IMG/VR virus record: IMGVR_UViG_2576861733_000002
Location: 1 to 64,000 of that record
Direction: 5' to 3' (one strand)
From: a virus
Lineage: Duplodnaviria; Caudoviricetes
DNA: 64,000 nt
Shown here: piece by piece, positions 24,492 through 41,118 of the stretch
Numbering within the stretch: the stretch's first letter is position 1
Layout: each line of letters opens with the position of its first letter
Position numbers and translations under genes: made by a program
Notes under the pieces: model-generated
Told to the model about the DNA's origin: nothing
Database searches by the model: none
Seen by the model: the letters and a program-made list of their open reading frames with translations, nothing else

Positions 24492-24628
24492 AACTGTTAC
24501 CTCAACTAACGGTTTGTGGTTAGACGTCCCGTGAGTGGTTCCAAGCACTTCCGGGACGTTGCTTTTTTCACGTCAAGCGTGATAACGTACGTACGTAATA
24601 GCAGCATCCTATGAGGTTACGTACGTAC

Positions 24629-24820
24629 ATGTCAACAATAAAACGAGATAAAACTCCTAAAGGAGAAGGCTTGTCTCCCACATTCCAAATCCGAATAAGT
24701 CCTGAATTGCGCCAGCAGATGAATGAAGCTGCTGAGCGTGAGGGAGTAAGTCTTGGTAATTGGCTTAAAGGTCTGGCGAGAAATGAACTTATTAAGCAAG
24801 GAATTGAACCTAAAGGTTAG
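24629..24820 (+). CDS. Ribbon-helix-helix regulator (Arc/HicB-like)
   Basis: FQIRISPELRQQMNEAAEREGVSLGNWLK; divergent from the icd-like gene. Confidence 0.75.
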   Translation: MSTIKRDKTPKGEGLSPTFQIRISPELRQQMNEAAEREGVSLGNWLKGLARNELIKQGIEPKG

Positions 24821-24878
24821 TTTTCACATGCTCTCGTCGATTTATTTTTTGCAGTCAATATTAAACTAAGGAATTTCT

Positions 24879-25589
24879 ATGGATAATTTATATACGCCAT
24901 CTGAATATTTTATGTTCGTAGAGCAATTTGATCATTACTTTCCACGAAAAAGCCCTTTTAACTCATTATTATTCGAGTTCAATTATAGATTAGAAGATAT
25001 AGTTGTTTTTCACCGCTTTGTAATCAATACATATGCAAATAATAAAAAAGCAATTGATGTACAATATAATAAATTTAGATTTCTTGATGATGAACAAAAG
25101 AAATCTCTTTCTGATGACGAGTATGAAGCATATCAACTCAGCTTTGCAAGACATATGGAATACATTAACCATCAAACTGATTTGAATGAAAAAGCGTCTT
25201 ACATTGCTAACGATAGTGTCGTTATAAACTTATGGGCCATGAATGAACAATATATGACCAGGGGATTAGCCAACCTAATATGTCAAAAAGAAAATAAAGA
25301 TTTAAGTGAAGTTAAAACGCCTTATAAATGGGATACAATTAAAAGCAAATTCTTGTCATATGGAATCAACTTTGAGACATTACCATCATATGATGACATT
25401 AATGAATGTAGAGTGCTGAATAACAAAATAAAACATCTGAACATAGTAGATTCTGGATTAGAAGTTTTCCCTCCCTTCAAAGGTAAGCTTAACGAATCAC
25501 TTACTGGGATGGCCTTTCCTCTTCAAAAATATATTATAGGCTCTCATCACTTTATAGGCATGCTATTAGAAGAGTGCTCCAAAAAATAG
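24879..25589 (+). CDS. Low-GC cargo protein, possibly HEPN-like
   Basis: 236 aa, helical, with INECRVLNNKIKH near the C-terminus. Confidence 0.55.
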   Translation: MDNLYTPSEYFMFVEQFDHYFPRKSPFNSLLFEFNYRLEDIVVFHRFVINTYANNKKAIDVQYNKFRFLDDEQKKSLSDDEYEAYQLSFARHMEYINHQTDLNEKASYIANDSVVINLWAMNEQYMTRGLANLICQKENKDLSEVKTPYKWDTIKSKFLSYGINFETLPSYDDINECRVLNNKIKHLNIVDSGLEVFPPFKGKLNESLTGMAFPLQKYIIGSHHFIGMLLEECSKK

Positions 25590-25635
25590 ATATATGGCAA
25601 CGTATAGTGTATCGTTCAATACGTTGCCAAATCTC

Positions 25636-25872
25636 TCATTTATTTTTATCGAACCAATCTCCTTTAATCCAAGCTTGCACCTCAGAAAGCCGATACGCAA
25701 CGGCTGACGGCCCAATTTTGATTCGCTTCGGAAATTTTCCTTCCTGTTCCATGCGCCAGCGCGTGGAGTTTGAGAGCGTGGTCATCGCGCGGCATTCGGG
25801 CTCACGAATCATTCGGTCAAGCTCAGGCATATACTGGAGATCTTCTTTTTTCACAACGGATAACATAGCCAT
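25636..25872 (-). CDS. alpA: AlpA-family regulator/excisionase
   Basis: RMIREPEC..TTLSNSTRWRMEQEGKFPKRIKIG..AVAYRLSEVQAWI. Confidence 0.9.
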   Translation of the reverse strand: MAMLSVVKKEDLQYMPELDRMIREPECRAMTTLSNSTRWRMEQEGKFPKRIKIGPSAVAYRLSEVQAWIKGDWFDKNK

Positions 25873-25873
25873 A

Positions 25874-27109
25874 TCAGGCGCTCCTTTTCTTAATCACTTT
25901 GACTGTAACTTCTTCACCCACCAGCCCATCAAGGTAATCAACCCATCGGTCCAGCGCTTCTTGTTTTTGGGGAATATACTTGCTGCGGTTATAGATTCCG
26001 GCCACACCCTTTATGGTGTGTCCCAGCAACTGCTCCACTACATAAAAATCGACGCCCATATCGTTGAGACTTGTTGAGAACGTTCGTCTCAGGTCATGTA
26101 ATGACCAGCGTTTTTCATGTTTCAGAGATATAAAGTTTGTGCATCCCATCGTGCTGACGGTTGAATCAGATTTCAGTTCCCCGAGTATGTACCTACGCCT
26201 TTTAGTCTCTTCGTGCAGGTTTACCATCCACTGCCGCATTTTCTGAGGCACCGGGCGGAGAATCTCTTCACCGTTTTTACTGTGCTCTTTCGGCACCGTC
26301 CAGAGCCATTTTTCGAAGTCCCATTCATCCCATGTGGATAGACGAGCCTCACTGAGCCGGCATCCAAACACAAGGCACAAAATCGCCATCCGTTTTTTGT
26401 AATTCATCACACGGGTTTTGCCCTTACCATGAAAGTAAACGCCCCACAGATCGGCAACGTAGCTTTCATCGAGCAACCGTTCTCTCTTGTCCTGATATTT
26501 ACCGATATCACCAGGGCTTAAGTCATCCAGCACATTGCACCGGACATACTGGCGAACCCGGCAGTATTTGAAGATCTGCTTTAACTCAATCAGCATCGAA
26601 GCAGACTGAACCGGCGCAATTTTCTTTATGCGATCAAAACACTTTATCCATTCCGACAGGCCGCATTTTTCGACAGGGAAACCACCAATATAGGGAAAGA
26701 TGTATCTCTCATAGCGGCGATAGAGCCGCACCGTCTCCTTGCGTTTATCCCTGGCATAGTTTTCAAACCAGTAATCAACAGCGTCCTTCACCGTAACAGG
26801 CGTGAACAGGTTTTCTTTGGTGATTTTATTCTCTATACGTGGATCGAGTCCCTGTGATAGCCATGCCCGGCACTCGTCCCTTTTCTCCCTGGCCTGTTTA
26901 AGTGTCATATCTGGATACTGGCCTAACGTCATCCAGACGGGGGCACTTTGTCGGCCTGAATGCCTGAAGAAAAAAACAAAGCTTACTGTGCCACTCGTGC
27001 TGACTCTGACAGACAGTCCCCGACCATCGGCCACCATCTTTTGACGCTGCTGCGGTTTACCATGCAGGGCTTTTAGCGTCTTGTCGCTTAACTTGTTCTC
27101 GCCAGCCAT
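25874..27109 (-). CDS. int: Satellite tyrosine integrase (P4-like, arm-binding N-domain)
   Basis: DGRGLSVRV, GCRLSE (Arg), SKNG, HDLRRT, LLGH, GIYN (Tyr). Confidence 0.95.
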   Translation of the reverse strand: MAGENKLSDKTLKALHGKPQQRQKMVADGRGLSVRVSTSGTVSFVFFFRHSGRQSAPVWMTLGQYPDMTLKQAREKRDECRAWLSQGLDPRIENKITKENLFTPVTVKDAVDYWFENYARDKRKETVRLYRRYERYIFPYIGGFPVEKCGLSEWIKCFDRIKKIAPVQSASMLIELKQIFKYCRVRQYVRCNVLDDLSPGDIGKYQDKRERLLDESYVADLWGVYFHGKGKTRVMNYKKRMAILCLVFGCRLSEARLSTWDEWDFEKWLWTVPKEHSKNGEEILRPVPQKMRQWMVNLHEETKRRRYILGELKSDSTVSTMGCTNFISLKHEKRWSLHDLRRTFSTSLNDMGVDFYVVEQLLGHTIKGVAGIYNRSKYIPQKQEALDRWVDYLDGLVGEEVTVKVIKKRSA

Positions 27110-27272
27110 AAAACCTCATTCTGCAATACACATTGCAATACACACTTAGCTGCAACGCCGAAAAACAGTAGAAAAGCAATGCAAACAACATTTCTTTTTT
27201 CTTCATAATTAACAATAAGTTAATGAAATAATCTGGTTCTTCATGCGTCCCCATGAGGTAGTGTGAGGGATA

Positions 27273-27284
27273 ATGGATCATCAT
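27273..27284. repeat. Satellite att core, copy 2
   Basis: ATGGATCATCAT, identical to 16524-16535. Confidence 0.92.
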
Positions 27285-27644
27285 CATGGTGTTTTCCGGC
27301 ATAATGACCGGATTGCCGACCATCGCAATGACAGAGGCCATCGATGCAGCCAGCCCATCAATGTGAACAGTGATGGACGCACCGTGATGTTTCAGCGCAT
27401 TAAAAATGGCGATACCGTCAAAGACATCGCCACCCGGTGAATTGATATGAAGATTGATCAGGCTTATATCGCCAAGCGCCTTTAAATCGCTGACAAACTG
27501 TTTTGCCGTTACCCCCCAGTAGCCAATTTCGTCGTAAATAAAAATATCGGCTGTGCTGTTTCCACTGGCCTGCATACGGAACCAGGAGTTACTTCCTGCG
27601 CTGGCTTTCGGACGGTGGGGCGCCCGGTTCTTTGACTTCGGCAC
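27273..27644 (-). pseudogene. 5' part of the helper ClpP-protease/major capsid fusion gene
   Basis: AAGGAGG RBS plus GTG start; IYDEIG, NSPGGDVFDG, GLAASMAS; homology ends abruptly at TMMMIH. Confidence 0.92.
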
Positions 27645-29091
27645 TGGTGCCTCCTTTATCGTTGGAAGGGTCTGTATCAAACACCAGCCCCAGTTCTTTG
27701 TTTTCATCGATTTCAGCTTTCCGGCGCGCTTTGACATCGTCCGGATTGCGCCCGCTGGCACGCACCCAGTCAGATTCCGTCGCCGCGCCACCCCTGATTT
27801 GTGTTTTCCAGGCGTTTGCCTCTTTGACCGGGTCAATCCACGGCATCACCGGGCCGGAATAAACCGCGTTATAAAGCGTGTCCATGTCCGTGCCGCGCGG
27901 TACCGTGATTTCGCCGGAGGCCACAGCCATTTTCAGCCAGGCCCGGTACATGGGGCGGGTTATCGCGCCAATAAACCAGTTCTGCAGGATGAGATAGCCA
28001 TCAGTGGACTCCACCAGCTCCTGCCGCTGCGCGCTGTAGGTGCCGTTGTAGTTTCGTGCGGTACTCGAAAAGCTGAGGCGGGTTCCGGCGGCGACGGCGC
28101 GCAGTTGCCCGTTGCGGAATGTTTCCAGGTTCGGATTGGGGCGGTCTGATTTAATCATTCCGATTTCTTCACCCGGTTGCAGGTCGTCATACAGCATGCC
28201 CGGCTTGATCATCAGCTCGCGGTCATCCTTTCCGGCGCTGTCTTCGTCGTAGCTCTGCCCGTCCCCTTTTTTGATATACATCCCCAGCGCAGCGGCAATA
28301 CGGGCGGCAACCAGCTCCGAATCCTCATACTCTTTCAGTGCGCTGAGCCGCATCAGCACGCCGGAGAGCAACGAATTGCCACGGGTCTGGTGTAGACGGC
28401 GGGTATACTTCAGGTGCAGCATGTTTTCTGCATCAACGTTCTTCGTATCGAGTTGCTTCCCGGTAACGGGCAGGATTTTATAAACCTGGTACGCTTTCGG
28501 GCGTCCCCAGTCATCCAGAAAAACGCCCTGGCTCAGTTTCAGGGATTCGTCACTGGTCATCGGGACAAAATCCGCCTCAAGCGCCTCGAGCCAGAACGGG
28601 ATCCGCGCAGAGGGAACAAGGCTGTTGCCGGTACCGCTGACCATCTGGGCAAATACTTCACCGTCCCGCAACCAGCTGCGAAGCATGAGGCGCTCCAGCA
28701 TGGGGCGGGTAAACTGGCCGGTGACCTCAGGCTTAACGGACCATTCTGCAAATTTTTTACGGATATCCACCACCAGCTTTTTCGCTATCTTCCCGTTGCT
28801 CATTTTCGGGTGAGGTTCAACAACGATCCCGTTGGCACCCACCACCCGTTCTTCGAGCTTGTCGAAGATGCCGATCACCAGGTCGTTATTGTTATCCAGC
28901 CAGCGGGCCTGCTCACGCAGAGAGGCCGCCCCCATCTGGCTCAGCTGGTTAGCCGAGCGATTTTCCCGGCGGGCCTTGTGTGTCCGTGACGGCCGGGCCG
29001 CCTCGTATGCCTGAATAACGGCCCTGGCCCGCAGCCGTGACGCTTTCCATGCCGGAGAAAATATGCCGATTGCATCGTCCAGAATGGTCAT
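27589..29091 (-). CDS. Portal protein (lambda family)
   Basis: LREQARWLDNN, DGEVF, YSAQRQEL, WIDPVKE motifs. Confidence 0.95.
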   Translation of the reverse strand: MTILDDAIGIFSPAWKASRLRARAVIQAYEAARPSRTHKARRENRSANQLSQMGAASLREQARWLDNNNDLVIGIFDKLEERVVGANGIVVEPHPKMSNGKIAKKLVVDIRKKFAEWSVKPEVTGQFTRPMLERLMLRSWLRDGEVFAQMVSGTGNSLVPSARIPFWLEALEADFVPMTSDESLKLSQGVFLDDWGRPKAYQVYKILPVTGKQLDTKNVDAENMLHLKYTRRLHQTRGNSLLSGVLMRLSALKEYEDSELVAARIAAALGMYIKKGDGQSYDEDSAGKDDRELMIKPGMLYDDLQPGEEIGMIKSDRPNPNLETFRNGQLRAVAAGTRLSFSSTARNYNGTYSAQRQELVESTDGYLILQNWFIGAITRPMYRAWLKMAVASGEITVPRGTDMDTLYNAVYSGPVMPWIDPVKEANAWKTQIRGGAATESDWVRASGRNPDDVKARRKAEIDENKELGLVFDTDPSNDKGGTSAEVKEPGAPPSESQRRK

Positions 29092-29303
29092 CCGAACCTC
29101 GCCAGTTTGTAGCCCGGATTGCCCCGGCGTTTGTTACTGATGGCGGCCAGACGACGCTCCCACTCCTGCCGCCCCTTGCGGATCTCGGCAAGATTTTCAA
29201 AGCTCATCTGTTGCCCGTTAAAGGTGATGGACTTGCCGCCCAGCACCGCCATTTCTGCGTCGGTATAACGCTGGATCATGGCCTCAATATCACTCTGGTT
29301 CAC
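29088..29303 (-). CDS. Head completion protein (gpW-like)
   Basis: Small gene between terL and portal; AEMAVLGGKSITFNG. Confidence 0.75.
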   Translation of the reverse strand: MNQSDIEAMIQRYTDAEMAVLGGKSITFNGQQMSFENLAEIRKGRQEWERRLAAISNKRRGNPGYKLARFG

Positions 29304-31408
29304 AGCCAGCCTCCTGACGTAGCCCACGGATTGTTTTCTGTTTCAGATTGCGGCTTCTTGCGCCGGGTTTTGGCTACCGGATCGGGTGTCGCAGGCGCCG
29401 GGGATGTCGCTTCGCCAGTTTCCGGCGGCGCGTCCTCCAGCCACGTTTCCCGCCGTGCCCAGTCTGGCGCATCCGGCCATTTAATCTTTTCGTAGCCGTG
29501 AAGGATCGCCAGTGCATCGGCGTAGACCAGCAGGTCAAAGGCTTCGTTCGCGCCCCGTCCGGGTTTGCTCCATTTGCCATCAGCAGAACGCTCCTCATAA
29601 GTCAGTTCGTCGTAAAACCACGCTCCCAGCCACTCAGGAAAATGGACATAACCCGGCCCCGGCGAATCCCGCCACAGGGCGTTATTCACTCGATCCTTAA
29701 GGGAGTCGGTCTGGAGCAGATAAAGCGGAACATCACCGGCGGCTTTAGCCCGGCGCGCGGTCCTTCCGGTGTTATCCGGAAAAGTCCGGGTGATCAATTT
29801 AGCCCGGCGCTGACTGTCCCCTTTGAACAGGAACACCCGTTTGCCAAGGCCTTCCCGGCGGCACTTACGCCAGAATTTGTATGCGTTGTCGGTAACACCA
29901 TCCTCCCCACCGGAGTCAACGGCCATTGCCATAAGCCGCATGCGTTTTGTCGGGTCACTGGCAAGCGGCCAGGATTTTTCAAACACATCGCTCAGAAGCA
30001 AATCCCAGTCCTCCGGGTAACCCGACGGGTCAACCTGATAACTTTCCCCGTCACCGTTAATGCGCAGTGACTGGCGGATGTTGTAGCGATCAACAATCCA
30101 GCGCTCACCCTGCGCACCGTAGCCCGTGACCTGAACCACGAAACGGCGGTTTTTCCCGGCCTGCACATCGACGGTTGCCGCAATAAAACACACGCCATCC
30201 GGGACGGACCGTTTCGGTACAACCTCCGCCCGCTGCTCCAGCAGTTCGCTTTTACGCTGCTCCATGCTGGCGCGCGGGAGATAGGGCCGCCCGAAGTCGG
30301 TGTTTACCACCGTTTTTAACGTCTCTTCGCTCTGTGTCGCTTCATACTCCTGCTCTGCTGTCAGGAATTTGTAAATCATCTGCGCCCATGTCTGGTAAGC
30401 CGCTGCCGGTCCCTCCATCCAGAAGGAAGCAATACGTGAGCGACGCGGTTCGCCATACCGGTTACCGTCCCGGTCTATTTTTTCCCCGTCGCGAAGCCAG
30501 ACATGCCGGATGTTCAGATCGCGCTTCATCTCTGGTGTAATTTTTCCCTGGCATGCCGGGCACTGGAGATAAGCGGCTTCACTTGCCAGAACGGGATCAG
30601 GCGATTCCCTGTAGCCGGTCATATTGGCAATTTCTGGCTGAAAATATTCGTGGCAATGCGGGCACTGCCAGTACAGGCGACGGCGATCGCCACGGTTGAA
30701 CAGGGACAGGATGCCGGTCGTTGGTGGCGCTTCATGTGCGGTTGCTGGCCGCCATTTTGTGTCGCGAATGTCGCGGCCGGGTGAACTTTCCACGAGCGTC
30801 ATGCCGCCGGACATAAACGTGGTCGTGCGCTTTGAACCGAGGGAAAAAGCATCGCCCTCCCCGTCGATGTCTTCGGGAAAGCGGTCATAGTCGGTTAAGG
30901 CCACGCTTTTATAATCCGACGATGACATGATATTGACCGAGGGCCAGCCGAGTTTCAGGTAGTTACCTGCCCGGAATGTCCGGTCGTGGACGTTATTGTC
31001 ATTGCGGCGGGGGCTCAGCCGTGATTTAACCTCCGGGCTGCAGCGGAAGGTGCGGTCGAGGCGTTTCTTGGAGTGTTCCCGCGCTTTCTCCTCTGAAACC
31101 TGTATCACCAGCATATCCGCCGGATCGCAGACGATGTTATATACAATCCAGCCATCAATCAGGCCGATGGTTTTGCCGGTTCGTGCAGGCCCGACGAACA
31201 CCACCGCATCGTATTCTCTGGACGCAAGGCAATTCATCGGCTCGATGATATAGGGAGCAAGATTAGGATCCCACGGAACGGAGTTACCCGCCCCCATAGG
31301 CACACGCATGTATGAGCTGACCGCATCAGCCACCTTCATACGACGCGGGGCACGTAAAATGCCGGAGACATCGCGGCGGATCCCCCTGGCAGATGCCCGT
31401 TTGGCCAT
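29300..31408 (-). CDS. Terminase large subunit (gpA family)
   Basis: GPARTGKT, LTDYDR, ESSP, CPHC/CPAC, VDVQ, NEAFDLLVY. Confidence 0.95.
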   Translation of the reverse strand: MAKRASARGIRRDVSGILRAPRRMKVADAVSSYMRVPMGAGNSVPWDPNLAPYIIEPMNCLASREYDAVVFVGPARTGKTIGLIDGWIVYNIVCDPADMLVIQVSEEKAREHSKKRLDRTFRCSPEVKSRLSPRRNDNNVHDRTFRAGNYLKLGWPSVNIMSSSDYKSVALTDYDRFPEDIDGEGDAFSLGSKRTTTFMSGGMTLVESSPGRDIRDTKWRPATAHEAPPTTGILSLFNRGDRRRLYWQCPHCHEYFQPEIANMTGYRESPDPVLASEAAYLQCPACQGKITPEMKRDLNIRHVWLRDGEKIDRDGNRYGEPRRSRIASFWMEGPAAAYQTWAQMIYKFLTAEQEYEATQSEETLKTVVNTDFGRPYLPRASMEQRKSELLEQRAEVVPKRSVPDGVCFIAATVDVQAGKNRRFVVQVTGYGAQGERWIVDRYNIRQSLRINGDGESYQVDPSGYPEDWDLLLSDVFEKSWPLASDPTKRMRLMAMAVDSGGEDGVTDNAYKFWRKCRREGLGKRVFLFKGDSQRRAKLITRTFPDNTGRTARRAKAAGDVPLYLLQTDSLKDRVNNALWRDSPGPGYVHFPEWLGAWFYDELTYEERSADGKWSKPGRGANEAFDLLVYADALAILHGYEKIKWPDAPDWARRETWLEDAPPETGEATSPAPATPDPVAKTRRKKPQSETENNPWATSGGWL

Positions 31409-31896
31409 CAGTCCTCCTCTGGCTCTTCCTCCTCTGGTTCGGCGTCCATCACTTTTTGTGCCACCTGGTCGCGCAGATCATCAATCACGCTCTGCACGCG
31501 GGAGATCGCAACCGGCGTCAGCGCGCAGTCGCGTTCAAGGATGTCCGGGAGTGTTTCAAGCACCATAACGACGGCTTTCGCCATTAATGAAAACTCACGG
31601 GCAACATCTTCAGCCGGTATGAGCTGCTTTGTATCGACCTCAAATTTCAGCCGCTCATTTTCAGCTTTCCAGTGTGCAAGCCGATCACCTGGCGGCATAT
31701 CCTCAAGACTGGCGGATACCGTCGGGATCATCAGTTCGCACAGGATATCGGTGACGAGGTAGAGTTTTAGCTTGCTGTTACTGCCAGGGGCCGGGCTGAC
31801 ATTTTTCAGCCGCGCGGCGACTGTCTGGCGGTGCGCGCCGGTGATACCCGCGAGCTGGTTGATGTTGAGCTTTAACGCTGCAATTTCCTGGTCCAT
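31408..31896 (-). CDS. Terminase small subunit (Nu1/DUF1441-like)
   Basis: N-terminal wHTH, HWKAENERLK; lies between cos and terL. Confidence 0.9.
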   Translation of the reverse strand: MDQEIAALKLNINQLAGITGAHRQTVAARLKNVSPAPGSNSKLKLYLVTDILCELMIPTVSASLEDMPPGDRLAHWKAENERLKFEVDTKQLIPAEDVAREFSLMAKAVVMVLETLPDILERDCALTPVAISRVQSVIDDLRDQVAQKVMDAEPEEEEPEED

Positions 31897-31949
31897 GATG
31901 GTGAACACTTTTTAAACAATTCGACATCATTGAAAATCGGGCAGATTAA

Positions 31950-32075
31950 AAATCAATAACCTGCGCACATGATGATGATGACCATGGATCACGAAAACCA
32001 GCCGCTTTCCGCGACCTCGCCGCCCCGTGGACTGGACCCCCTCCGGGAGTACATAAATGATAATCATTCGCATCA
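31950..32075 (-). other. Helper cos site (cosN 12-mer GGGCGGCGAGGT at 32014-32025)
   Basis: ACG-GGGCGGCGAGGT-CGCG versus lambda ACG-GGGCGGCGACCT-CGCG; upstream of terS. Confidence 0.85.
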
Positions 32076-32459
32076 ATGGCAAGATTTGACATAAATCACC
32101 CCATTTTGGACGTTTAGACGTCCAAATACACCAATCCGGACGCGATACAGACGTCCAAATGGCTTAATCCGTGCTGCCATTATCACAGGCACTCAGTGAA
32201 TGCCTGCTGTAATGCCCGTTATTCGATACTGCTTTATTGATAGTTCCTCAGACAAAAAAAACCGCTCGGACTGAGCGGTTGAAGAAGAATGGTTTTGGGT
32301 AAAGGGTATAAACGATGATAGCTCTTTAAATATAGTCCGGGTCAGACTCACTTCAAATTAAGTAAGCGATTAAAGAGAAAAATGTAAAACGCCCCGCTAT
32401 TTAGGGATTCCCCTGAACGCCAGGCCAGCGCCGATTTTCAGTCGGGGCATTCATTTCAA

Positions 32460-32699
32460 CTACAGCTGGTCGCTATCTCCTGCTGGCTGGATATCGATAA
32501 AATATTCTTTACCCTGCTCAAACTGCTCGAATGCTGCCGGGTTGGAGATCACCATATGAAGCTGCCCACCAGGGGTGTACTTAGACCAGGATTCGTTCTC
32601 CGTACTGCCAGTCGTTACCGCCATCAGATTGACGACAGCAGAAGAGTTATCCGGGGATTTGTTGATGCTGTTACATTGAAATTTTGCACGTACCGTCAT
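32460..32699 (-). CDS. Conserved phage hypothetical protein
   Basis: MTVRAKFQC...WSKYTPGG ORF after Rz. Confidence 0.7.
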   Translation of the reverse strand: MTVRAKFQCNSINKSPDNSSAVVNLMAVTTGSTENESWSKYTPGGQLHMVISNPAAFEQFEQGKEYFIDIQPAGDSDQL

Positions 32700-32775
32700 G
32701 ATGTTACCTTTTTTTGGTTTCGGGTATGGGCGTATACCCGCGATGGAATGCGAAATTAGCAGCATGCTCGCTCCT

Positions 32776-33246
32776 TTATTTCAGGCACTGCTGCCTGATG
32801 TAGTCCTGCAGGTAGTTCACTTGCCCTGTGATGGTGGCGATTCGCTCTCTGAGGGTGAAATAATCCCGTTGAGCGGAGTCTGTAAGTCGGGGGCTGGCTG
32901 CATCGCCCACGCCGCCGGAGGTGGACGATCCGTCCTGGGTGCAGGTGGCGGCGACTCGCAGCCTACGCTTGCCAGCAGCAACATCGCGTTCAAGCTGATC
33001 AATAGTGGCCTTTGCATTTGCCAGATCTCCGGTGTATTTGGCATCCAGTGCGGCAACATCACGCTGGCGCACCTGCATATCGGTGATAGTGTCCTTCGCC
33101 AGCTTCAGATCGCTGGTGGCTTTATCGCGCTGCGCTTTGTAGGCGATCGCATTGTCACGGTAGTGGTTAGCGAAAAAGGCGAGCACGGCCACCAGCGCTA
33201 TTACCGACAACTGAAGCCAGTAGCGCTTTAACAGCGCCGTAATCAC
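32776..33246 (-). CDS. Rz i-spanin
   Basis: N-terminal [39 protein letters not shown]. Confidence 0.92.
32817..33017 (-). CDS. Rz1 o-spanin embedded in Rz
   Basis: Lipobox SVGC and Pro-rich [10 protein letters not shown]. Confidence 0.85.
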
Positions 33247-33683
33247 GATATGAACAGAGCGAACTCCGCCTCACGGCGACGGGAAAGTCCAGCCAGCACC
33301 TTGCCTCCAGCCTTATTCCAGCGCGGGAATTCATCCGCTGCGCCGTCATAATCGCCGGCATTCAGTTTTTTAAGGAGCGTGGACGTGGAAAGCGCGCGCG
33401 TTCCGAGGTTGTAGGCAAACGACACGAGCGCATCAAACTGCCCCTGAGTCAGCTTCACCTTCACCAGCTTCGATACGTCGCTCTCGTAGCTCACCAGCCC
33501 GGTACGCAGCAAACGTTCTGCCGTTTCCTCTTTGATGGTCATACCGGCGCGGACAGGTTTGCCGTCTACGGGCTGCGTCCAGCCATAGCCTATCGTCCAC
33601 ACGCCAACGCTGTCCTGATATGCCGTAAGCCGCAGGCCTTCAAACTGTTTAATGAGAGCAATTCCACGCTCGCTAATATTCAT
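33243..33683 (-). CDS. Endolysin (GH24 lysozyme)
   Basis: [20 protein letters not shown] catalytic motif. Confidence 0.95.
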
Positions 33684-34222
33684 GTCGTGCCCCTTGTGAA
33701 GGTATGGCCCTTGTGTGATTTTCTATTATTTCGGCATAAGACCTTGTAAACCTCGGCTGGATCAAACCCATTGCGTCTTATGTCATCCGTTCCGGCCATC
33801 ACTATTTCTTTTCCGCTTTTAATATCTTTGGCTAAAATGAAACCCTTAAAACCTTTTGATCCATGACCTTTCAGATTAATATTTAATCCATTGCGGAATG
33901 CATGTTTTTGATTTTCTGATTTTGTCACCCACTCTAAATTTTCCGCTCTGTTATCAGCCTTTATCCCATTAATATGGTTTACCTGCTCCTTGCCTTCTGG
34001 GTTGGGTATAAAATGCAAAGCAACAAGCCTGTGAACAGTAAAGGCCTTTTGTTTTTTATCTCTATAAAGTCTGAATGAAAAATACCCGCGCCTAAGCAAA
34101 TTTGGCTTTAGTACTTTGAAAGTGCCATCGCCTTTTATGCTTCTAGCCCTGCCTCGGTTTGAAATCTGATAAGCCCCAGAGTATCCATCGATATCACTCC
34201 ACACCTCAGCCGTTTGCATCAT
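33680..34222 (-). CDS. NUMOD4-HNH homing endonuclease between holin and endolysin
   Basis: [42 protein letters not shown]. Confidence 0.9.
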
Positions 34223-34526
34223 CCGCCCCCGCTTTTCTTGCGGCGAAGCGCTTGATGAAGCCGCCGATAAAATCTGTTCCCACGTAGCCAATAAACACAC
34301 TGGCGATATACGACAGGTTTTTAGCCAGACCGAAGAACTCCAGCAGGTCACGGGCAAACCAGGCGATCATCGCGCACATGGTGGCATCTATAAGCGTTTT
34401 CATGATCGGGCCGCCGTTATAGCGTCCCCGGAGATACGCCATTGCAAACGCCAGCATTGCGCCAATACCCTGCTCTTTTGCAGCCAACAGAGCAGCAATG
34501 AAATCTTGTTTGTAAGGCATTTTCAT
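34206..34526 (-). CDS. Lambda S-like holin with dual start (M-K-M)
   Basis: [36 protein letters not shown]. Confidence 0.93.
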
Positions 34527-34574
34527 AGTCTCTCACCTCGCTGTTTACGGAGGCTGTGTGATTGGAAACAGGAT

Positions 34575-34751
34575 AAAAAAAAGGCCTGCTCGGATGAACA
34601 GGCCAGAAAAGCAATAATAAATTTACAGGATGTGGTGCCGGGTGCCTCCCGGTGAGTCTTTGGCCAGCCACCATGACCCGCGCAGGGTATGCTTCAGTCG
34701 TGAAACACGAAGATTGCTGTTTACGCCCCTCCGCACAGGGGGATTCACCAC
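34575..34751 (-). ncRNA. Candidate structured small RNA, copy 1
   Basis: TTGACG-N18-TACATT promoter (34787-34758), GTGGTG/CACCAC closing stem, two GC hairpins, intrinsic terminator; paralog at 36412-36576. Confidence 0.65.
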
Positions 34752-34840
34752 ATCAATAATGTAAAATTAGCCGTACCGATTCGTCAATAAGCAACACTCT
34801 GTCAAAGAGTCATCAGAGAGAGATGACCTTTTGCACAGCG

Positions 34841-34990
34841 TTATTTTTTTATTTTACGGGGCCAGTACCGACAGGCCACCAGCATGATGATGAATATCAC
34901 CAGCAGGGTAAGATCCATCAGTACACCGGTGATCCGCCAGGCGGCGATAAGTACCAGCCCAGACAGCAGGCATACCCCGGCGCGCTTCAT
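34841..34990 (-). CDS. 49-aa hydrophobic membrane peptide (absent from ORF track)
   Basis: Hand translation MKRAGVCLLSGLVLIAAWRITGVLMDLTLLVIFIIMLVACRYWPRKIKK; its ATG overlaps the upstream TAA. Confidence 0.65.
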   Translation of the reverse strand: MKRAGVCLLSGLVLIAAWRITGVLMDLTLLVIFIIMLVACRYWPRKIKK

Positions 34991-35826
34991 TACTTGCTGC
35001 CCAGCACGCGGCTGATATTTTTCAGCAGAACGGTTGAGGCGGTTTCCAGCATGTCATCACCGGCCTCGGTGTTGGCGACCACCAGCGTTTTAGTGCACGG
35101 CACTTTCACCTTTGAATCACTGAGCCAGCCGGATTCAGTGACCGCTTTTTTCAGTTCATAAACCGGCTTGCCGTTTGGCAGTTTGTCATCCACATGCCAG
35201 CCGTTCATGCTGATCATCGTCAGACCGCTGCCCTTCTGGTTGACTACCTCAAGAAACTTGTTAGAGCGATCCGGCGCGGATACCCACAGGAACGCGTCAT
35301 ATTCCCCGGTTGTCACCTTTGCCAGCGAACGGACGCCGCCCTTTGCGTAGGTCTCAACCTTCGCGTAGTCCTTTTCGAGCGACTGCAAATACTGCCAGGA
35401 GGCATAAGAGCCGCTGGCCGGTTCACCCACGGCGATTTTTATGCCTTCTTTCAGATCGCTTTCACTGCTGATCTTCCCGCCATCTTTGACGGCGACAAAC
35501 ACGCATTCATCTGCAAGCTCGCCGATGATGTCCACTTTCTGCGCTTCATTGCCGTGGCGGCTGCGCCAGAACTGAAACGCATCCGCCTGAGTGAAGCCGA
35601 TCTGCGCTTCGCCGCTGGCGACTTTATCAAGGTTGTCCAGCGAGCCTTTGCTCGGGATCACCGTCGATTTATAACCGTATTCGCTTAGCGCGCTGGCGAG
35701 ATTGACCCCATACCCAGCGTTATACGTCAGCCCCTGCAGACCGGTGGTGATGGTGATATCTGCTGATACGGCGCTAAAACTTGCGCACAGGAGTACCGCC
35801 GCGATAGCGGTGAATAGCTTTTTCAT
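34990..35826 (-). CDS. Periplasmic binding protein, TAXI-TRAP/PBP2-like (moron)
   Basis: Signal peptide, ITTG...TY, SKGSLDNL, IGFTQAD, IAVGEPASGS. Confidence 0.78.
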   Translation of the reverse strand: MKKLFTAIAAVLLCASFSAVSADITITTGLQGLTYNAGYGVNLASALSEYGYKSTVIPSKGSLDNLDKVASGEAQIGFTQADAFQFWRSRHGNEAQKVDIIGELADECVFVAVKDGGKISSESDLKEGIKIAVGEPASGSYASWQYLQSLEKDYAKVETYAKGGVRSLAKVTTGEYDAFLWVSAPDRSNKFLEVVNQKGSGLTMISMNGWHVDDKLPNGKPVYELKKAVTESGWLSDSKVKVPCTKTLVVANTEAGDDMLETASTVLLKNISRVLGSK

Positions 35827-36411
35827 GTGACTTTCCTTTAAGGGGTGAGCCAGTGCCCAGGGAGAGTACGCAGAGAGTCAAACTCCCTGTGGCTCACCTC
35901 TGTAAAGGCTCTGCGGTTTGATGTATGCGTCGGCACAGACGTGGTGATCTTTGAAATACAACTATTTAGTAAAGAGGGTTCTGGCCTGCATTTGTTTCAC
36001 CAAAAGGTGAAGTTTGTGTGTAACTCCCGAGGCTATAAATGAAAAAAGCCACATAAAAATGTGGCTTCAGTGCAGTGGAATTAATACTTTTTTAACTAAG
36101 GTTTTTTTAGACCATACTGCTCGCGAATGATCTTCTCCAGACCGATGCGGCTAAGTGTAATGAAGACACGCTCTCCTGGAATGAAAAGCCTGAACTCAAC
36201 CGCCGAAATCTTCGTTACCTTGAACCTCAACCCGGCAAAACACACTCTGCGCATAAAAACACCAGAAAGCATGAGGCTTTAAAAGTGGAAACAGATCAAC
36301 TGTCGAAACTATATCCTGGTATCAAAATGCCGCCATGATCCTGGTCAACGCCGTATCTTGCCGCTGTTTGGGCTTCAGTCTCCGTGGTGAAACAGAAATT
36401 TTACCGCCAAT

Positions 36412-36576
36412 AAAAAAGGCCTGCTCGGACGAACAGGCCAGAAAAGCAATAATAAATTTACAGGATGTGGTGCCGGGTGCCTCCCGGTGAGCAATAGATC
36501 GGTCATGACCTTCGCTCGCGTAAAATTCAGAGACAACGAACTGTTTTACGCCCCTCCGCACAGGGGGATTCACTAC
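36412..36576 (-). ncRNA. Candidate structured small RNA, copy 2
   Basis: TTGACC-N18-TAAATT promoter (36612-36583); same 29-bp and 80-bp blocks as copy 1 with a different middle. Confidence 0.65.
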
Positions 36577-36712
36577 AGAAATAATTTATCGTCTAATCGT
36601 TAAGTTGGTCAATAAGATATGCTCATCAGCAGACAATACTACAGATCCAAAAGTGAACTTTTGTCAATTCATAGCATCTCAATGTCGTTCTTGTAAGCAC
36701 AGGTTTGATAAC

Positions 36713-37042
36713 ATGAGAAAAATTGTAATTGCAGCGCTTCTGATTTCACTTTCTGGATGTGATGATGCTAAATCATCCCCCCCACCAATCCCTCCTGACT
36801 ATGATGGTGCAGCCAGCAGACAGGCAGGAACCTGGCAATTAATCGAAAAAATAAAAGACTCCAAAGGGGATGTAACTCAGGTTCTGTTATTTAATACGGC
36901 TGATGGCGAGGTTTGCAAAATTTATACTATTGATGATGATGAAATGCCAACAAATAAACCTCCTGTGCGCTGCTATTCCGCTAATGACTACATAACGGAT
37001 CGAAAACCACCCAAAGAAAACGGTCATAAAGATGAAAAGTAA
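36713..37042 (+). CDS. Lipoprotein moron
   Basis: MRKIVIAALLISLSGC lipobox; opposite strand to the late operon. Confidence 0.75.
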   Translation: MRKIVIAALLISLSGCDDAKSSPPPIPPDYDGAASRQAGTWQLIEKIKDSKGDVTQVLLFNTADGEVCKIYTIDDDEMPTNKPPVRCYSANDYITDRKPPKENGHKDEK

Positions 37043-37360
37043 GCAGCGGCTGTGGTCTAACTATTCGTAAGGATGAGATTATCAGCCATACCAGAAAATA
37101 TTCTGAGAATATTACCAGGAATGTGCCCGGAATCATTTCAAGTAATTACAGAATCTTTCTCTCGATCTTGCTGGTGTCGGTTTAAATTGATACCAGCATT
37201 TTATACCTCCGGGGGCAAAAAACCCCGCCGGAGCGAGGTTTTGAAATTTTTGCGATTGCTTTTAGTCGCTGCCATCGGAGCGCAGCTCTGCCAAGCATGA
37301 GGCAGTTAACCATTTCTCTGGCCCGTTTTCAACGTCACACCGCTTATAGAGCATTTTTTG

Positions 37361-37987
37361 CTAAATTTGATTTTCCTCGTCAATTTCCCGACGTACTGAC
37401 AGAAAAGCTCTGGCCCTGAATATTTCCAGGCACCAGCGAACACGCTTGCGCGCCTCGCCTGTCGTCAGCCAGGGTGCCACAGATTGCAAATCGCGTGATA
37501 TGTCTGAGATTTTGTTGCGGGTGGTGTAATACTGCATACCCACCATATAAACAGGATCATCAGATTTAAACGTCTTAAGCATCACCTTTTCTATAAAATC
37601 CGCATCGTCCTTCCGGGCCGATGCCTCCAGCATTTCGCTGACGCTGTTCGCCCCCCAAAGAAGAGTTTTAGCGCGCGCCGTTGCCTGCGCTCCCCTGAAA
37701 CCTTCTTTATGCGCCTGCGATATTGCCTCGGTGATGCGGGAAAGCTGTTTGTCAGACCAGCCGGATTCTTTAATATCTCCCCAAAGTCGGCGGCTGTTCG
37801 CGAGCCTGTATTCCGCGCGGGTTTTGCCACCAACACAATCCCCCCACACGGTTAAAAGTGACTTTATCCACGCTGACTGAATTGTTGCCAGCGGCGTGAA
37901 TCGCCCTAAATAGCTCTTGCGCGGGGCGGCAGCTACAATTCCCAGTCCTGCAAAATGGTTACGGCGTTGGCGCGGTGTCATTTCCAA
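37361..37987 (-). CDS. Late antiterminator Q (Gifsy-type)
   Basis: Last delayed-early gene before the lysis region; WIKSLLTVWG, C-terminal HTH, KRVRWCL. Confidence 0.75.
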   Translation of the reverse strand: MEMTPRQRRNHFAGLGIVAAAPRKSYLGRFTPLATIQSAWIKSLLTVWGDCVGGKTRAEYRLANSRRLWGDIKESGWSDKQLSRITEAISQAHKEGFRGAQATARAKTLLWGANSVSEMLEASARKDDADFIEKVMLKTFKSDDPVYMVGMQYYTTRNKISDISRDLQSVAPWLTTGEARKRVRWCLEIFRARAFLSVRREIDEENQI

Positions 37988-37993
37988 TTCTCC

Positions 37994-39046
37994 TTACGCC
38001 AGAACGCCGAGCGCTAGCGCCCGGTCCAGCAATTTGATGATTAACTCCGGCTGTGTGCCGTATTTACGTTCGAACGCAGCCACTCCGGCGTTACCGTGCA
38101 GTTCATCGTGATGTTGTCTACAGAGCGGGATGGTGAACGCGTCATGTGCTTTAGTGCCAGTTCCGCCCTGCCCCCAGCCAATAAGATGATGTGGATCGTC
38201 GGCAGGATTGCCGCAGCATGCGCAGGGTTGAGTTTTTACCCATTCAAGGAATTTCGGATTTTCCCATCGACTGCGCTTGGGAAGTCTGAAAAGCGTTTTC
38301 GGAGCCACAGGATCAACAATCAGAGACACCACGGGCTTTTCGCATACTGGTTCGAATCTGGTATCCAGAAGCTCAGTAACGCCGGGGGCAGAGGAATGTT
38401 CGGCAAGAATGCTTGTGGCCGGAACTGACGGGACAATGTCACTTTCAAGCATAACATCTGGCGTGATCAGTGCCGGTAGTTGTAATGCCTTCCGAGCCAT
38501 ATCCCCCGGAACCGCTGACAATACATCCCGGCAAAACGCCCACCAGCAAAGCTCTGGCAGTGTTAATTCATGATCATCCCTGAAATGAAGAAAACCACGC
38601 GCGGCGCGGATAACATATTCGGCGGCATTTTTACTGGCTATGGCAGAAAGTTGTTCGAGAGACTGCTCGCGCAGCTGGTTATCGCAACTCCAGCAAAGCC
38701 GAACCGCCGATGGTGGGTAGCGCAACGTTACCATCTCAGAGTGGTGATAGTCGGAGTGCGACCACTGGCAACCGGCACGCATTCCGCGTAACCAGTATTC
38801 AACACCGTCTACCCCGCCAGCAGCAGCAATAACTTTTTCGTTGGAAAAAAAAGGGGCCAATGCAGGATCTGCAATCAAGGGCTGGTGTGCTGGTGGAACT
38901 TCACCGCTGGGTAAGTGGGCCATATTGACTGGCTCCATCTCCACCAGCACGCGCCCGGATGCAAAGAGCGACATCAGATGTTTGCCGGGTTTCAGCAATA
39001 CGATGCCCATTTCCCTTGATATGGCAGGTTTCAGGAGAACACGCAT
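37994..39046 (-). CDS. DUF968-family protein (C-terminal HNH-like)
   Basis: LTLPELCWWA, WVKTQPCACCG.PADDPHHLIG, IPLCRQHHDELH. Confidence 0.88.
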   Translation of the reverse strand: MRVLLKPAISREMGIVLLKPGKHLMSLFASGRVLVEMEPVNMAHLPSGEVPPAHQPLIADPALAPFFSNEKVIAAAGGVDGVEYWLRGMRAGCQWSHSDYHHSEMVTLRYPPSAVRLCWSCDNQLREQSLEQLSAIASKNAAEYVIRAARGFLHFRDDHELTLPELCWWAFCRDVLSAVPGDMARKALQLPALITPDVMLESDIVPSVPATSILAEHSSAPGVTELLDTRFEPVCEKPVVSLIVDPVAPKTLFRLPKRSRWENPKFLEWVKTQPCACCGNPADDPHHLIGWGQGGTGTKAHDAFTIPLCRQHHDELHGNAGVAAFERKYGTQPELIIKLLDRALALGVLA

Positions 39047-39399
39047 AAAGCATCCTCCTCAATAATAATCTGGCCAGATTCACCCCATAGTTTTGTTACC
39101 CGTGAATCCCAAATGTGCGCATCGTTTTCGAACAAAGCATCAAGGAGCGCTTTTTCAAGGTTGTCTTTATCAGGTTTCACCTGGTGTGGCTTCCCGTTCA
39201 TCTCAGCACGCTTCTTTTTGCTCCAGCTCGCAGGCATCGGCAGAATAAAGGTGATGTGCGCCCCGGCAACGGGCAAGACGACGCCACGGATCCGAACCTC
39301 ATCGCAAAACGCACGATAGCGCATCACCTCCGGTCTTCTTTTCCATTTATCAGAGCGGGTCATACGGGGTTTGCCCATCGGCACAATAGGATAAATCAT
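39031..39399 (-). CDS. rusA: RusA-family Holliday junction resolvase
   Basis: PMGKPRMT, KPDKDNLEKALLDAL. Confidence 0.88.
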   Translation of the reverse strand: MIYPIVPMGKPRMTRSDKWKRRPEVMRYRAFCDEVRIRGVVLPVAGAHITFILPMPASWSKKKRAEMNGKPHQVKPDKDNLEKALLDALFENDAHIWDSRVTKLWGESGQIIIEEDALCVFS

Positions 39400-39590
39400 G
39401 AGCGCCCCCGGAATTTTGAGTCACCGCGACGGGGCGCTTTACCTTCGGGCAAGAATGCGCTGACGTTCCAGGATAGATAGTCAGGCGATAGCGATTTCTC
39501 CGTTTCGACGCCTCTGGCTGTGTATCGAGCAACAAGCTCTTTAGCCTGGCTTTCTGTCAGGTCGGTGTGATGAAACCAGCCTTTTTTCAT
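39396..39590 (-). CDS. Phage hypothetical protein
   Basis: GGAGG RBS; coupled to rusA. Confidence 0.7.
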   Translation of the reverse strand: MKKGWFHHTDLTESQAKELVARYTARGVETEKSLSPDYLSWNVSAFLPEGKAPRRGDSKFRGRS

Positions 39591-39711
39591 GCAGCCTCCT
39601 GGTGGAGACAGCAGAAATCGCTGGCGCTGATAAACGTCAGTTTAATGATGCAATATTGTGGGGTTTTCTGCGCCACGGTTTTCCCTCCGGGCGCAGCAGG
39701 TTGCCAGTTGT

Positions 39712-39954
39712 TCAGGCTGGCGGAGGCAATATATCAGAGATTGGGGAAACGCGGTAACCAGCACGTTCGAGCATCTGCATAAACAGGTTTGGGGTGCCTA
39801 CAATTTCCGATGGAGATATTGGCCTGAAGCTGTACACATCCCCTTGCCTGTACAACAGCGCCTTACAGTTCACGGGCATGTCAAACGTAAACACCACGAC
39901 CCCGTCATCCCGACGGACCAGATCGTAACTGGTCAAAACATCACTTTCCACCAA
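39712..39954 (-). CDS. LexA-regulated hypothetical protein (antirepressor candidate)
   Basis: AAGGAGG RBS; SOS box about 110 bp upstream. Confidence 0.6.
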   Translation of the reverse strand: MVESDVLTSYDLVRRDDGVVVFTFDMPVNCKALLYRQGDVYSFRPISPSEIVGTPNLFMQMLERAGYRVSPISDILPPPA

Positions 39955-40061
39955 TCCTCCTTATGCGCCGTATCGGCGCGGACTCTTATTCTTCTGGCTC
40001 TAGGCCAGCAGCTAAACCACACCGGGGAGTTTTGCCAATGTGGTGAAGCGAGCATTAAATA

Positions 40062-40077
40062 CTGTTTATATATACAG
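40062..40077. promoter_or_regulatory. LexA (SOS) box
   Basis: CTGTTTATATATACAG fits CTGT-N8-ACAG. Confidence 0.85.
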
Positions 40078-40328
40078 TATTTTAAAGAATCAGATATTTC
40101 AACACAAATTAAGAGGATGATATTTAAGATTTTTTTATTTTATGGTTACGTGTAATTTTCGTATGAAACGAAGCGTTTTTGAGATTAAATGGTTGATTTT
40201 GCAAAAATCAGAGGGGCGAAAATCTGGTATTCGCTCAACTCGTAATCGGCTAATCAGATCGATTTAATGATATCGATCGAAAATATCGATCATGCCAGAA
40301 ACAAAAAACCGTCACATAGTTGGCTCAG

Positions 40329-40583
40329 TTATTTTTTGTTGGCTTCAGCCATTTCTACGTATCTGGGGTCATTCGCCCGCGGCAGTTGCACGCTCACCTC
40401 CCGATAATGTTTCAGGCGCTCCAGGAAGTAATCGCGTAAATCTTCCGGCTGCTCTCGCATCACGACTTCCGCAATCACAGGCATGTTCATTCGTTCTTTG
40501 TACGCTACGCCGCTGGCGGCAAGATCCACATTAACCTTGTCGCGTTCTTCCTGCGGTTTGGCTGCTAAATTCCACTCAGACAA
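40329..40583 (-). CDS. holE: DNA polymerase III theta subunit homolog (HolE/Hot)
   Basis: WNLA...[38 protein letters not shown]. Confidence 0.9.
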
Positions 40584-40656
40584 TTTACCACCCTCGTTTT
40601 GCCTAACACCTTACGGTAGGATAATTAAGTCTAAACCAGAAGGGATAGTGTATCTC

Positions 40657-41118
40657 ATGAACTCGCCTGTTTTTATCACAATCCTCAGCGGTGTCACTGT
40701 GTTCATTGTGGGTCAAATCATTATGAAATGCGCTTTGGAACCATACGTAGCCTTCAAAGAACAAACTGGTAAAATCTCCTCACTTCTCTTGCGGGAACAG
40801 GCAAAAATAACAAATGGGAATGCAAATAACGAACTAATATTTGCATTAAAAGAAGCCGCAGCGGTATTAATCGCGAAATCTAAAGCAATACCTTGCTACT
40901 CATCATTTTCAATGACAGGACTATTGCCGCCTTACAATAAAGTCATTGAAGCTGCACAGTACTTGAACTTAATTGCATCACAGCTGGAACAATATAATAC
41001 CCCAATAACCTCCCCTCCAGATTATGTAAAGATGTCGGTTCTTAAAGGCTTCAAAACTTACTTTTCAAAAATAAGTGACAATTTAAACATCGTTGTCACT
41101 TATGAGATTAAGCCATAG
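40657..41118 (+). CDS. N-terminal TM hypothetical protein (moron)
   Basis: Low GC, opposite strand, one TM helix. Confidence 0.65.
   Translation: MNSPVFITILSGVTVFIVGQIIMKCALEPYVAFKEQTGKISSLLLREQAKITNGNANNELIFALKEAAAVLIAKSKAIPCYSSFSMTGLLPPYNKVIEAAQYLNLIASQLEQYNTPITSPPDYVKMSVLKGFKTYFSKISDNLNIVVTYEIKP

Follow-up and report, generated by a model that had tools for sequence, protein, structure and literature searches.

Two STnc100 RNAs Bracketing a Prophage Cargo Cassette: A Revised Fold and a Mainly Structural Middle

What kind of element begins and ends alike in both of its copies, differs between them in the middle, and sits twice between the antitermination gene and the lysis genes of a phage? 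This question is raised by the virus record IMGVR_UViG_2576861733_000002 (Duplodnaviria; Caudoviricetes), of which we analyzed positions 1 to 64,000 (hereafter, the window). The minus strand of the window carries two such units, copy 1 (34573-34787) and copy 2 (36408-36612), with common 5′ and 3′ blocks. A sequence-only reading, made without database searches, had described in each a sigma70-like promoter with an 18-nt spacer, a 29-bp block, a divergent middle, an 80-bp block and a terminator, and had proposed that the two RNAs belong to a modular small RNA (sRNA) family whose variable core sets target specificity. All of these parts were found. Here we report that both elements belong to STnc100 (Rfam RF02076), a family of prophage RNAs already described, that their fold is maintained across the family by compensatory changes and that the middle is mainly structural.

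Results

Both Elements Are Members of the STnc100 Family

The 5′ block is identical in the two copies over 29 nt (34720-34748 and 36545-36573), and a repeat search lengthens it to 44 nt at 91% identity. The 3′ block extends over 80 nt (34577-34656 and 36412-36491) and contains one mismatch (99% identity in the repeat search). Between the blocks lie middles of 63 nt in copy 1 (34657-34719) and 53 nt in copy 2 (36492-36544). The 3′ tails of both copies consist of UAAAUUUAUUAUUGCUUUUCU, then a 9-bp GC-rich hairpin and 6-8 U residues, and the terminators in the window read as unidirectional. The proposed pairing of a 5′ GTGGTG with a 3′ CACCAC holds in copy 1; copy 2 reads GTAGTG at the same place, which leaves one A-C mismatch.

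An Rfam 15 scan of the whole window returned exactly two matches above the gathering score, both to RF02076, with scores of 100.9 bits for copy 1 (34573-34780) and 88.8 bits for copy 2 (36408-36605) against a cut-off of 47. Both span model positions 1-206 of 206 and were reproduced in a repeat scan; the whole record, a 91.7-kb provirus, holds 2 STnc100 matches. With these matches, the view that the elements belong to no assignable family falls, an outcome that the sequence-only reading had itself listed as counting against it. Its mention of similar sequence in the Q-to-lysis region of other lambdoid prophages was sound: STnc100 is a modular prophage small-RNA family found at that site. Further STnc100 features are also present, namely a P1 closure that encloses hairpins P2 and P5 (both copies, with nine P1 pairs in copy 1) and a late-region site between Q and the lysis genes beside cargo. 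The repeats are not chance resemblances, since both copies score above the STnc100 gathering threshold and the same blocks recur in at least 120 viral contigs, in 23 Enterobacterales assemblies and in one assembly labeled Chryseobacterium. As to family, the finding is thus a rediscovery, and any Rfam-based annotation would label both copies STnc100.

Several published RNAs belong with these elements. Enterohemorrhagic Escherichia coli (EHEC) EDL933 is reported to have 11 STnc100 copies, one of which, STnc100_4, was positive by northern blot (PMC5331693). The Hfq-bound sRNA EcOnc27/sRNA103 overlaps the STnc100 copy that lies 75 nt downstream of stx2B (PMC12370729; PMC12711010; PMC7873438). In at least eight Sakai prophages, Tree et al. 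located such RNAs at the moron site, which lies between PR′ and the lysis genes (PMC4104026). PasD1 and PasD2 of enteropathogenic E. coli (EPEC) are northern-confirmed, show Hfq-dependent stability and have partners identified by RIL-seq (PMC8550237). A 2026 preprint judges PasD and STnc100, by structure, to be of common ancestry (bioRxiv 10.64898/2026.05.13.724894).

A Junction Fold with a Pseudoknot Is Maintained by Compensatory Changes

MAFFT alone failed to register the middles, and covariance models R1 and R2 were therefore built, P4 taking the place of the pseudoknot in the second covariance model. The covariation set comprised about 107-108 distinct homologs. In the middles, the strand just 3′ of P2 can pair with the loop of the hairpin that directly precedes P5, and the sequences of the two strands change between variants (CCAGUC/GACUGG, GCCAGGUC/GACCUGGC, UCCAGAA/UUCUGGA and UGAUAUC/GAUAUCA). 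In an alignment-free test over 33 classes, the mean longest helix was 7.03 nt for cognate strands and 5.54 nt for non-cognate strands (Mann-Whitney p 3e-8), a contrast that is diluted by a CAG/CUG core common to many variants. In the aligned set of 107 sequences, 95.2% of cells are paired, compared with 78.6% in shuffles and 33-50% when partners were slid. The slid controls and the alignment-free test speak for a real fold signal.

Changes on both sides of a pair were observed at 7 of 8 pairs in P1, all 7 in the pseudoknot, 3 of 4 in P2 and 3 of 5 in P5, and a smaller set agrees. P4 shows such changes at 6/6 pairs, with 96% of cells paired, and two more pairs that extend it into the "UC" of UCA bring it to 8/8. 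P2 is a hairpin of 6 bp that contains one bulge and is capped by a UNNGC loop. Its register, UCCC-CC/GG-(N)-GGGG, is set by the variants UGCG-G...C-(A)-CGCG and UCCA/UGGG and is unlike that of the Rfam structure line. In about 100 of 107 rows the P5 loop is AGGCA. This loop and the P2 loop are both nearly invariant, and conservation extends to the junction residues AA, GC(G) and A. In order, the junction is made up of P1, AA, P2, a C with 1-4 nt, the pseudoknot strand, the P3 insert, GC(G), P4, A and P5, which runs straight back into P1. Because four helices and a pseudoknot are kept by compensatory changes, selection acts on the RNA itself.

The covarying pseudoknot and the revised P2 were found neither in the Rfam structure line nor in the main text of the 2026 preprint; the word "pseudoknot" does not occur in that main text. 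A loop-loop contact between P2 and P5 was also considered. One variant (L145, 5438-5563; homologous loci are given here as L followed by a number) seemed compensatory for such a contact, which was rejected when L131 and L143 contradicted it.

The Middle Is Mainly Structural

When the fold is placed on the window copies (Table 1), the middle begins at its 5′ end with the pseudoknot strand, and P4 takes up its 3′ half; pairing constrains both. The middle is therefore mainly structural and not a guide mounted on a passive scaffold. A relative of copy 1, L145, carries CAGU/ACUG where copy 1 has CAGC/GCUG, a compensatory change. Only the central P3 insert varies freely, in both length and sequence, and P3, a structural peripheral element, may still carry a seed. 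Thus, the proposal of a modular sRNA with a specificity-setting variable core stands as far as the modular prophage family is concerned, but the core itself is mostly covarying pseudoknot and P4, with P3 alone free. The covariation analysis of homologs that had been suggested alongside it gave both-side changes in P1, P2, P4, P5 and the pseudoknot.

The full-length sequences fold more stably than their shuffles, at -66.1 kcal/mol (z -2.56) for copy 1 and -59.0 kcal/mol (z -3.15) for copy 2. Neither minimum free energy (MFE) fold contains an antiterminator-type alternative pairing, and the terminator is separate from the core in both.

Predicted Promoters, Terminators and an Hfq-Type Tail

Each copy is preceded by a promoter-like site and ends in a terminator-like hairpin with a U-run (Table 1). 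The same promoter geometry, TTGACx-18-TAnnnT followed after ~4 nt by P1, recurs in ~17 relative cores with unrelated spacers, and a terminator-like hairpin lies within 160 nt in 42 of 64 cores. In both window copies the predicted intrinsic terminator with its U-tail follows a U/A-rich single strand, an arrangement that corresponds to an Hfq-binding module.

The E. coli-type elements (L003, L013, L014 and most such loci, with GCAUGGUG as P1) have no canonical -10. They carry instead a conserved TG-n-TAAAAR ~6-7 nt before P1, which the strict promoter scan misses. After many of them comes a second hairpin of opposite orientation, in agreement with the convergent anti-sRNA partner described in EHEC.

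The Shared Blocks and the Cargo Cassette

The two copies bracket a non-coding or remnant segment, X, and a cargo cassette, immediately upstream of the lysis genes. Relatives of the cargo gene were found in 68 viral loci. In 32 of these a core lies within the ~3-kb flanks, and in 30 of the 32 it is downstream on the same strand. Cores on both sides of the cargo match, as in the window, occur in eight of the 68 loci (L206, L210 and L251-L256, the match in L251-L256 being only partial).

One locus bears directly on how this arrangement may arise. L190, which matches 1.9 kb of the window at 94-95% identity, holds the cargo cassette with a single core. It is a chimera, with the promoter, 5′ block and middle of copy 1 joined to the terminator-loop variant of copy 2 and segment X. 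Accordingly, X, which in the window lies between copy 2 and the cargo, is found in L190 (4251-4640) between the core and a holin-like ORF (open reading frame). Because L190 switches from copy-1 type to copy-2 type there, the crossover is placed inside ~60 nt of the shared 3′ block. This chimera offers direct support for shared blocks that act as recombination sites moving cargo cassettes between phages, and it bears out the earlier suggestion that the repeats could serve as recombination points for moron exchange.

Relatives of the cargo protein (65-72% identity) also occur on contigs of ~240-248 kb (L233, L234, L237, L240, L241, L243 and L246). These are of jumbo-phage or megaplasmid size, and their cargo flanks hold no STnc100 core.

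Homologs and Distribution

Searched with blastn against 50,697 phage records, copy 1 matched only 18 records, mostly in part, and a megablast search with the 5.1-kb region gave almost no matches; pattern and covariance-model searches were adopted for this reason. A scan for the exact blocks matched at least 120 viral contigs, with 36 distinct middles of 52-75 nt among the matches listed. A loop-and-junction pattern run on contigs from one genome per species matched 25 stretches, of which 23 are from Enterobacterales, one is from an assembly labeled Chryseobacterium and one is from Mesorhizobium. The Mesorhizobium stretch has no stems and was rejected as a chance match. The stretch from the assembly labeled Chryseobacterium sp. 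(L143, 4822-4934) is a true STnc100 homolog, with compensatory changes in P5 (CCAGG/CCUGG). Its label is that of a Bacteroidota species, far outside Enterobacterales, and this copy could be contamination or a transfer. The covariance model matched 20 of 151 genomes sampled from the family and 3 of 151 sampled from the order, the center genome being counted in both, and five genomes hold 3-11 copies each.

At several loci, cores form tandem arrays of 3-4 on one strand, 120-400 nt apart and with no genes between them (Table 1), and the cores of an array differ from one another in pseudoknot and P3 sequence. The 2026 preprint describes multiple copies as distal, not tandem (10.64898/2026.05.13.724894). 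The order Q (PF03589), cores, holin/lysozyme is found in L013, L082, L103, L139 and L141, and in L006 one core lies upstream of a sialate-esterase-like gene. A core copy in L130 (2223-2345) is on a 400-kb plasmid record, Pantoea sp. plasmid pAPP145_2, and not on a chromosome.

Gene Context in the Window

On the minus strand, the genes and elements follow one another as a DUF968 gene, a Q-like gene, a reverse-oriented lipoprotein-like ORF, copy 2, X, the cargo gene, a 49-aa ORF, copy 1, the holin gene, an HNH/NUMOD4 ORF, the lysozyme gene and Rz. Copy 1 ends 50 nt before the start of the holin gene.

The HNH/NUMOD4 ORF (PF13392, PF07463; 33680-34357, minus strand) separates the lysozyme gene from the holin gene, whose 3′ end it overlaps, and has the look of a free-standing homing endonuclease that entered the lysis cassette. 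The plus-strand ORF at 36605-37042 contains an internal lipoprotein-like signal (MRKIVIAALLISLSGC), has no family match and is followed by two plus-strand terminator-like hairpins (37169-37198 and about 37222-37260). Lying between Q and copy 2, this ORF appears to be another cargo gene, in opposite orientation. A 22-nt stretch of X (36273-36294) resembles the leader just 5′ of the window holin gene (34550-34571) at 77%.

Table 1. Positions and basis of assignment for the two STnc100 copies, their structural parts, the neighboring genes of the window and tandem arrays in other loci
Feature	Positions	Strand	Basis or remark
STnc100 copy 1	34573..34780	-	RF02076 100.9 bits; models R1 56.9 and R2 57.3 bits
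Copy 1 promoter-like site, TTGACG-18-TACATT	34758..34787	-	Consensus scan; kept in L190
Copy 1 P1	34746-34754 with 34629-34637	-	9 pairs
Copy 1 P2	34726-34743	-	Consensus
Copy 1 pseudoknot	CAGC 34716-34719 with GCUG 34665-34668	-	4 bp, from sequence
Copy 1 P3	about 34692-34712	-	
Copy 1 P4	34675-34679 with 34654-34658	-	
Copy 1 P5	34638-34652	-	
Copy 1 linker	34605-34628	-	
Copy 1 terminator-like hairpin, then U-run	34583-34604	-	Terminator scan
STnc100 copy 2	36408..36605	-	RF02076 88.8 bits; models R1 46.3 and R2 56.4 bits
Copy 2 promoter-like site, TTGACC-18-TAAATT	36583..36612	-	Consensus scan; geometry recurs in diverse relatives
Copy 2 structured core: P1 (one A-C mismatch), P2, P4-like hairpin, P5 (36473-36487)	about 36464-36579	-	Followed by A/U-rich linker, then terminator
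Copy 2 terminator-like hairpin, then U-run	36418-36439	-	Terminator scan
Antiterminator Q-like gene, upstream landmark of the late region	37361..37987	-	phrog_753 "anti-termination protein Q-like", E 2.7e-54; no Pfam match
Region X, non-coding or remnant, with another terminator-like hairpin at its end (36045-36068)	36025..36407	-	Terminator scan; 94.9% identical to L190 segment
58-aa ORF in region X	36096-36272	-	No family match
Moron cargo, secreted solute-binding-like protein (NMT1_3 / TAXI-like)	34990..35826	-	PF16868 E 8.6e-12; phrog_6856 E 3e-116
49-aa hydrophobic ORF traveling with cargo	34841..34990	-	ORF list; also adjoins cargo in L190; no family match
Holin, lambda S type, first lysis gene after copy 1	34206..34526	-	PF05106 E 2.8e-29
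Lysozyme	33243-33683	-	Library match, after holin
Rz	32776-33246	-	Library match, after lysozyme
Tandem core arrays	L006:2317-3357; L141:5465-6545; L132:131-1628; L139:214-744; L013:7449-8039		3-4 cores each

Discussion

In pathogenic E. coli and its relatives, the STnc100 family ranks with the most abundant RNAs of prophages. What the present locus adds is a refined fold, the finding that the "variable core" is mostly structure and recombination evidence for the exchange of cargo. With most of the middle accounted for by structure, the search for a seed narrows to P3 or to the 3′ linker, and the shared blocks appear as real crossover points for moving cargo cassettes between phages.

On a modest balance of probability, we favor the interpretation that both copies are STnc100 RNAs with their own predicted transcription units, a pseudoknotted fold and an Hfq-type tail, acting in trans as sRNAs, and with a middle that is mainly structural. 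A sigma70 promoter within the late operon would start an RNA of ~165-175 nt that ends at the intrinsic terminator. Its first ~125 nt would fold into a compact junction closed by P1, in which P2 and P5 are near-invariant and P4 varies in sequence but is conserved as a helix; the P4 loop would pair with the strand after P2 to form the pseudoknot, with the free P3 insert between them. The 3′ tail, consisting of the A/U-rich linker, the terminator hairpin and the U-run, would provide the usual Hfq-binding module. By analogy with the relatives described above, the RNA may accumulate in the lysogen, bind Hfq and act in trans on mRNAs. The gene order also suggests that the terminator would end the cargo transcript and shield the holin gene from read-through, and that Q-modified polymerase would pass it in lytic growth.

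Several results weigh against this interpretation. The covariation alignments were fitted to models that we wrote, which biases them toward those structures. In the subfamily of copy 1 (with L145 and L147) the pseudoknot is only 4 bp long. For copy 2 no pseudoknot partner was found: the homologous loop reads CAUG, the pseudoknot columns are gapped in the alignment and the MFE fold absorbs the 5′ pseudoknot strand into a long P3 hairpin, so that this copy appears to have lost the pseudoknot. No terminator was detectable within 160 nt in 22 of the 64 cores, and the sRNA format is thus not universal in the family. The RNA data are assembled contigs, compared here for four of eight runs; the RNA runs contain only 5-7% of the sampled words. 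Run X1 has one 189-nt contig over 34641-34763; three further X1 contigs match only the 5′ block and must come from relatives, because their flanks are unlike beyond it. The contigs of X2, X4 and X5 match only the 5′ end of the holin gene or the cargo gene. These contigs give neither the ends nor the strand of any transcript. Of the autonomy claimed for the two RNAs, the predicted promoters and terminators therefore stand, together with a geometry that recurs in relatives, but the RNA contigs do not show a discrete transcript. Nor did the variable cores show the complementarity to phage mRNAs that had been suggested as a check: pairing of the middles and linker with the 176 translation-start regions of the window was no better than in 30 shuffles, on energies from a custom script that are comparable only among themselves. 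The published accounts of STnc100, EcOnc27/sRNA103 and PasD1/2, in the parts consulted, give no proven target or mechanism for any member. Finally, near-invariant loops and a covarying pseudoknot exceed the needs of seed-type Hfq sRNAs, which hints at another partner.

The position of the elements invites explanations in which the RNA itself matters less. They might be cis-acting boundary modules of the cargo, the terminator insulating the holin gene and the blocks providing homology for cassette swaps, with the RNA a by-product. This fits with copy 1 ending 50 nt before the holin gene, with two copies that bracket the cassette, with a core after the cargo and on its strand in 30 of 68 cargo loci and with the L190 crossover inside the shared 3′ block; a review, moreover, calls the reason for the position between the late promoter and the lysis genes unclear (PMC7873438). 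A terminator or a patch of homology needs no 125-nt fold, however, yet four helices and a pseudoknot are maintained, and gene-free tandem arrays of 3-4 cores are not explained by an insulator role. We consider this account unlikely as a full explanation, although it does not exclude the sRNA interpretation, with which it is compatible. It is very improbable that the copies are late-promoter leaders (PR′ with tR′), equivalent to the lambda 6S leader or StxS, whose promoter is the loading site for Q. In favor of it, copy 2 is the first minus-strand promoter-like site found downstream of Q, its hexamers resemble those of lambda PR′ (TTGACT-17-TAAATT), and the first such element met between Q and the holin gene of L082 and L103 is a core. 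But copies that follow cargo genes or stand in arrays of 3-4 cannot all be PR′, the cores accompany at least two unrelated Q types (PF03589 and phrog_753), our model finds no match in the lambda Q-S region (best, 5.4 bits), and the Stx2-phage member is described as downstream of stx2B and separate from PR′ and StxS (PMC4104026; PMC7873438; PMC12370729). We give almost no credence to the idea that a small protein (GTG...NPPVRRGV) begins in the 5′ block. Two ORFs, 42 and 83 aa long, do start there, and some EHEC copies have ribosome footprints (PMC5331693), but the middles, at 52-75 nt, fall into all three classes modulo 3, so the reading frame of the 3′ block changes among relatives; in helices the sequences vary in a compensatory and not in a synonymous manner; and the promoter abuts the block, with no ribosome-binding site noted upstream.

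The conservation of the 5′ domain raises a different possibility, that it serves as an RNA that binds or senses some specific protein or small molecule, the Hfq tail being secondary. The near-invariant AGGCA and UNNGC loops of P5 and P2, the conserved junction residues, the covariation of every helix in a cloverleaf-like junction with very short linkers and the retention of the core while promoters, linkers and terminators differ between subfamilies are all consistent with such a role. Against it, the domain has no known partner, Hfq is the protein with which relatives were recovered, and copy 2 retains the other helices without the pseudoknot. The riboswitch variant meets the further objections that P1 and the terminator have no alternative pairing, that the terminator stands apart in both MFE folds and that the downstream genes vary by locus. 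Overall, we regard a binding or sensing role as unlikely. We advance tentatively, as one possible view and well short of a conclusion, a more specific form: the STnc100 core would be a cloverleaf-like four-helix junction, complete in itself, on which selection acts for the binding of one specific partner from the cell or the phage, with the Hfq tail a separable second function. The core is conserved across Enterobacteriaceae prophages and in some stands three or four times in tandem. The linkers of the core are short (P1, 2 nt, P2, then P4, 1 nt, P5, 0 nt, P1), and the P4 loop is held by an internal pseudoknot strand. Candidate partners would be a tRNA-handling, RNA-decay or transcription factor.

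HK022 put RNAs are cis-acting antiterminators, in which a promoter-proximal structured phage RNA is followed by terminators. No significant similarity to put sites was found in HK022 24000-40751 (16.7 kb, early and late regions, filters off; best match 14.8 bits, E 0.012), and the terminated sRNAs that accumulate from STnc100 relatives run counter to the prediction for a put-like element. The lambda PR′ 6S leader and StxS are, like STnc100, short terminated transcripts of the Q-to-lysis region, and StxS can act as an Hfq sRNA (PMC7873438). With no model match in the lambda Q-S region, the lambda PR′ leader and STnc100 are not homologous, and STnc100 members also lie after cargo genes and in arrays.

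The closest parallels are among pathogen prophages. EcOnc27/sRNA103 of EHEC Stx2 prophages is described as lying, like the window copies, between a cargo gene (stx2B) and the lysis region. In EHEC, EcOnc27 differs in forming a convergent pair with an anti-sRNA (AsxR/AgvB); the Rfam scan gave no match to AsxR or AgvB in the window. PasD1 and PasD2 of EPEC E2348/69 are likewise prophage sRNAs that adjoin Q. Their similarity to STnc100 is invisible to BLAST according to the preprint authors, and PasD is compared here by description only. With respect to STnc100 itself, copy 2 differs from the refined core in having no pseudoknot partner, and the Rfam structure line differs from the fold presented here in being without the pseudoknot and in setting P2 in another register (CCCCU/AGGGG). 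The Rfam family and the window copies have in common the conserved blocks at the 5′ and 3′ sides, closure by P1, a site in the late region of a prophage and the multi-copy habit.

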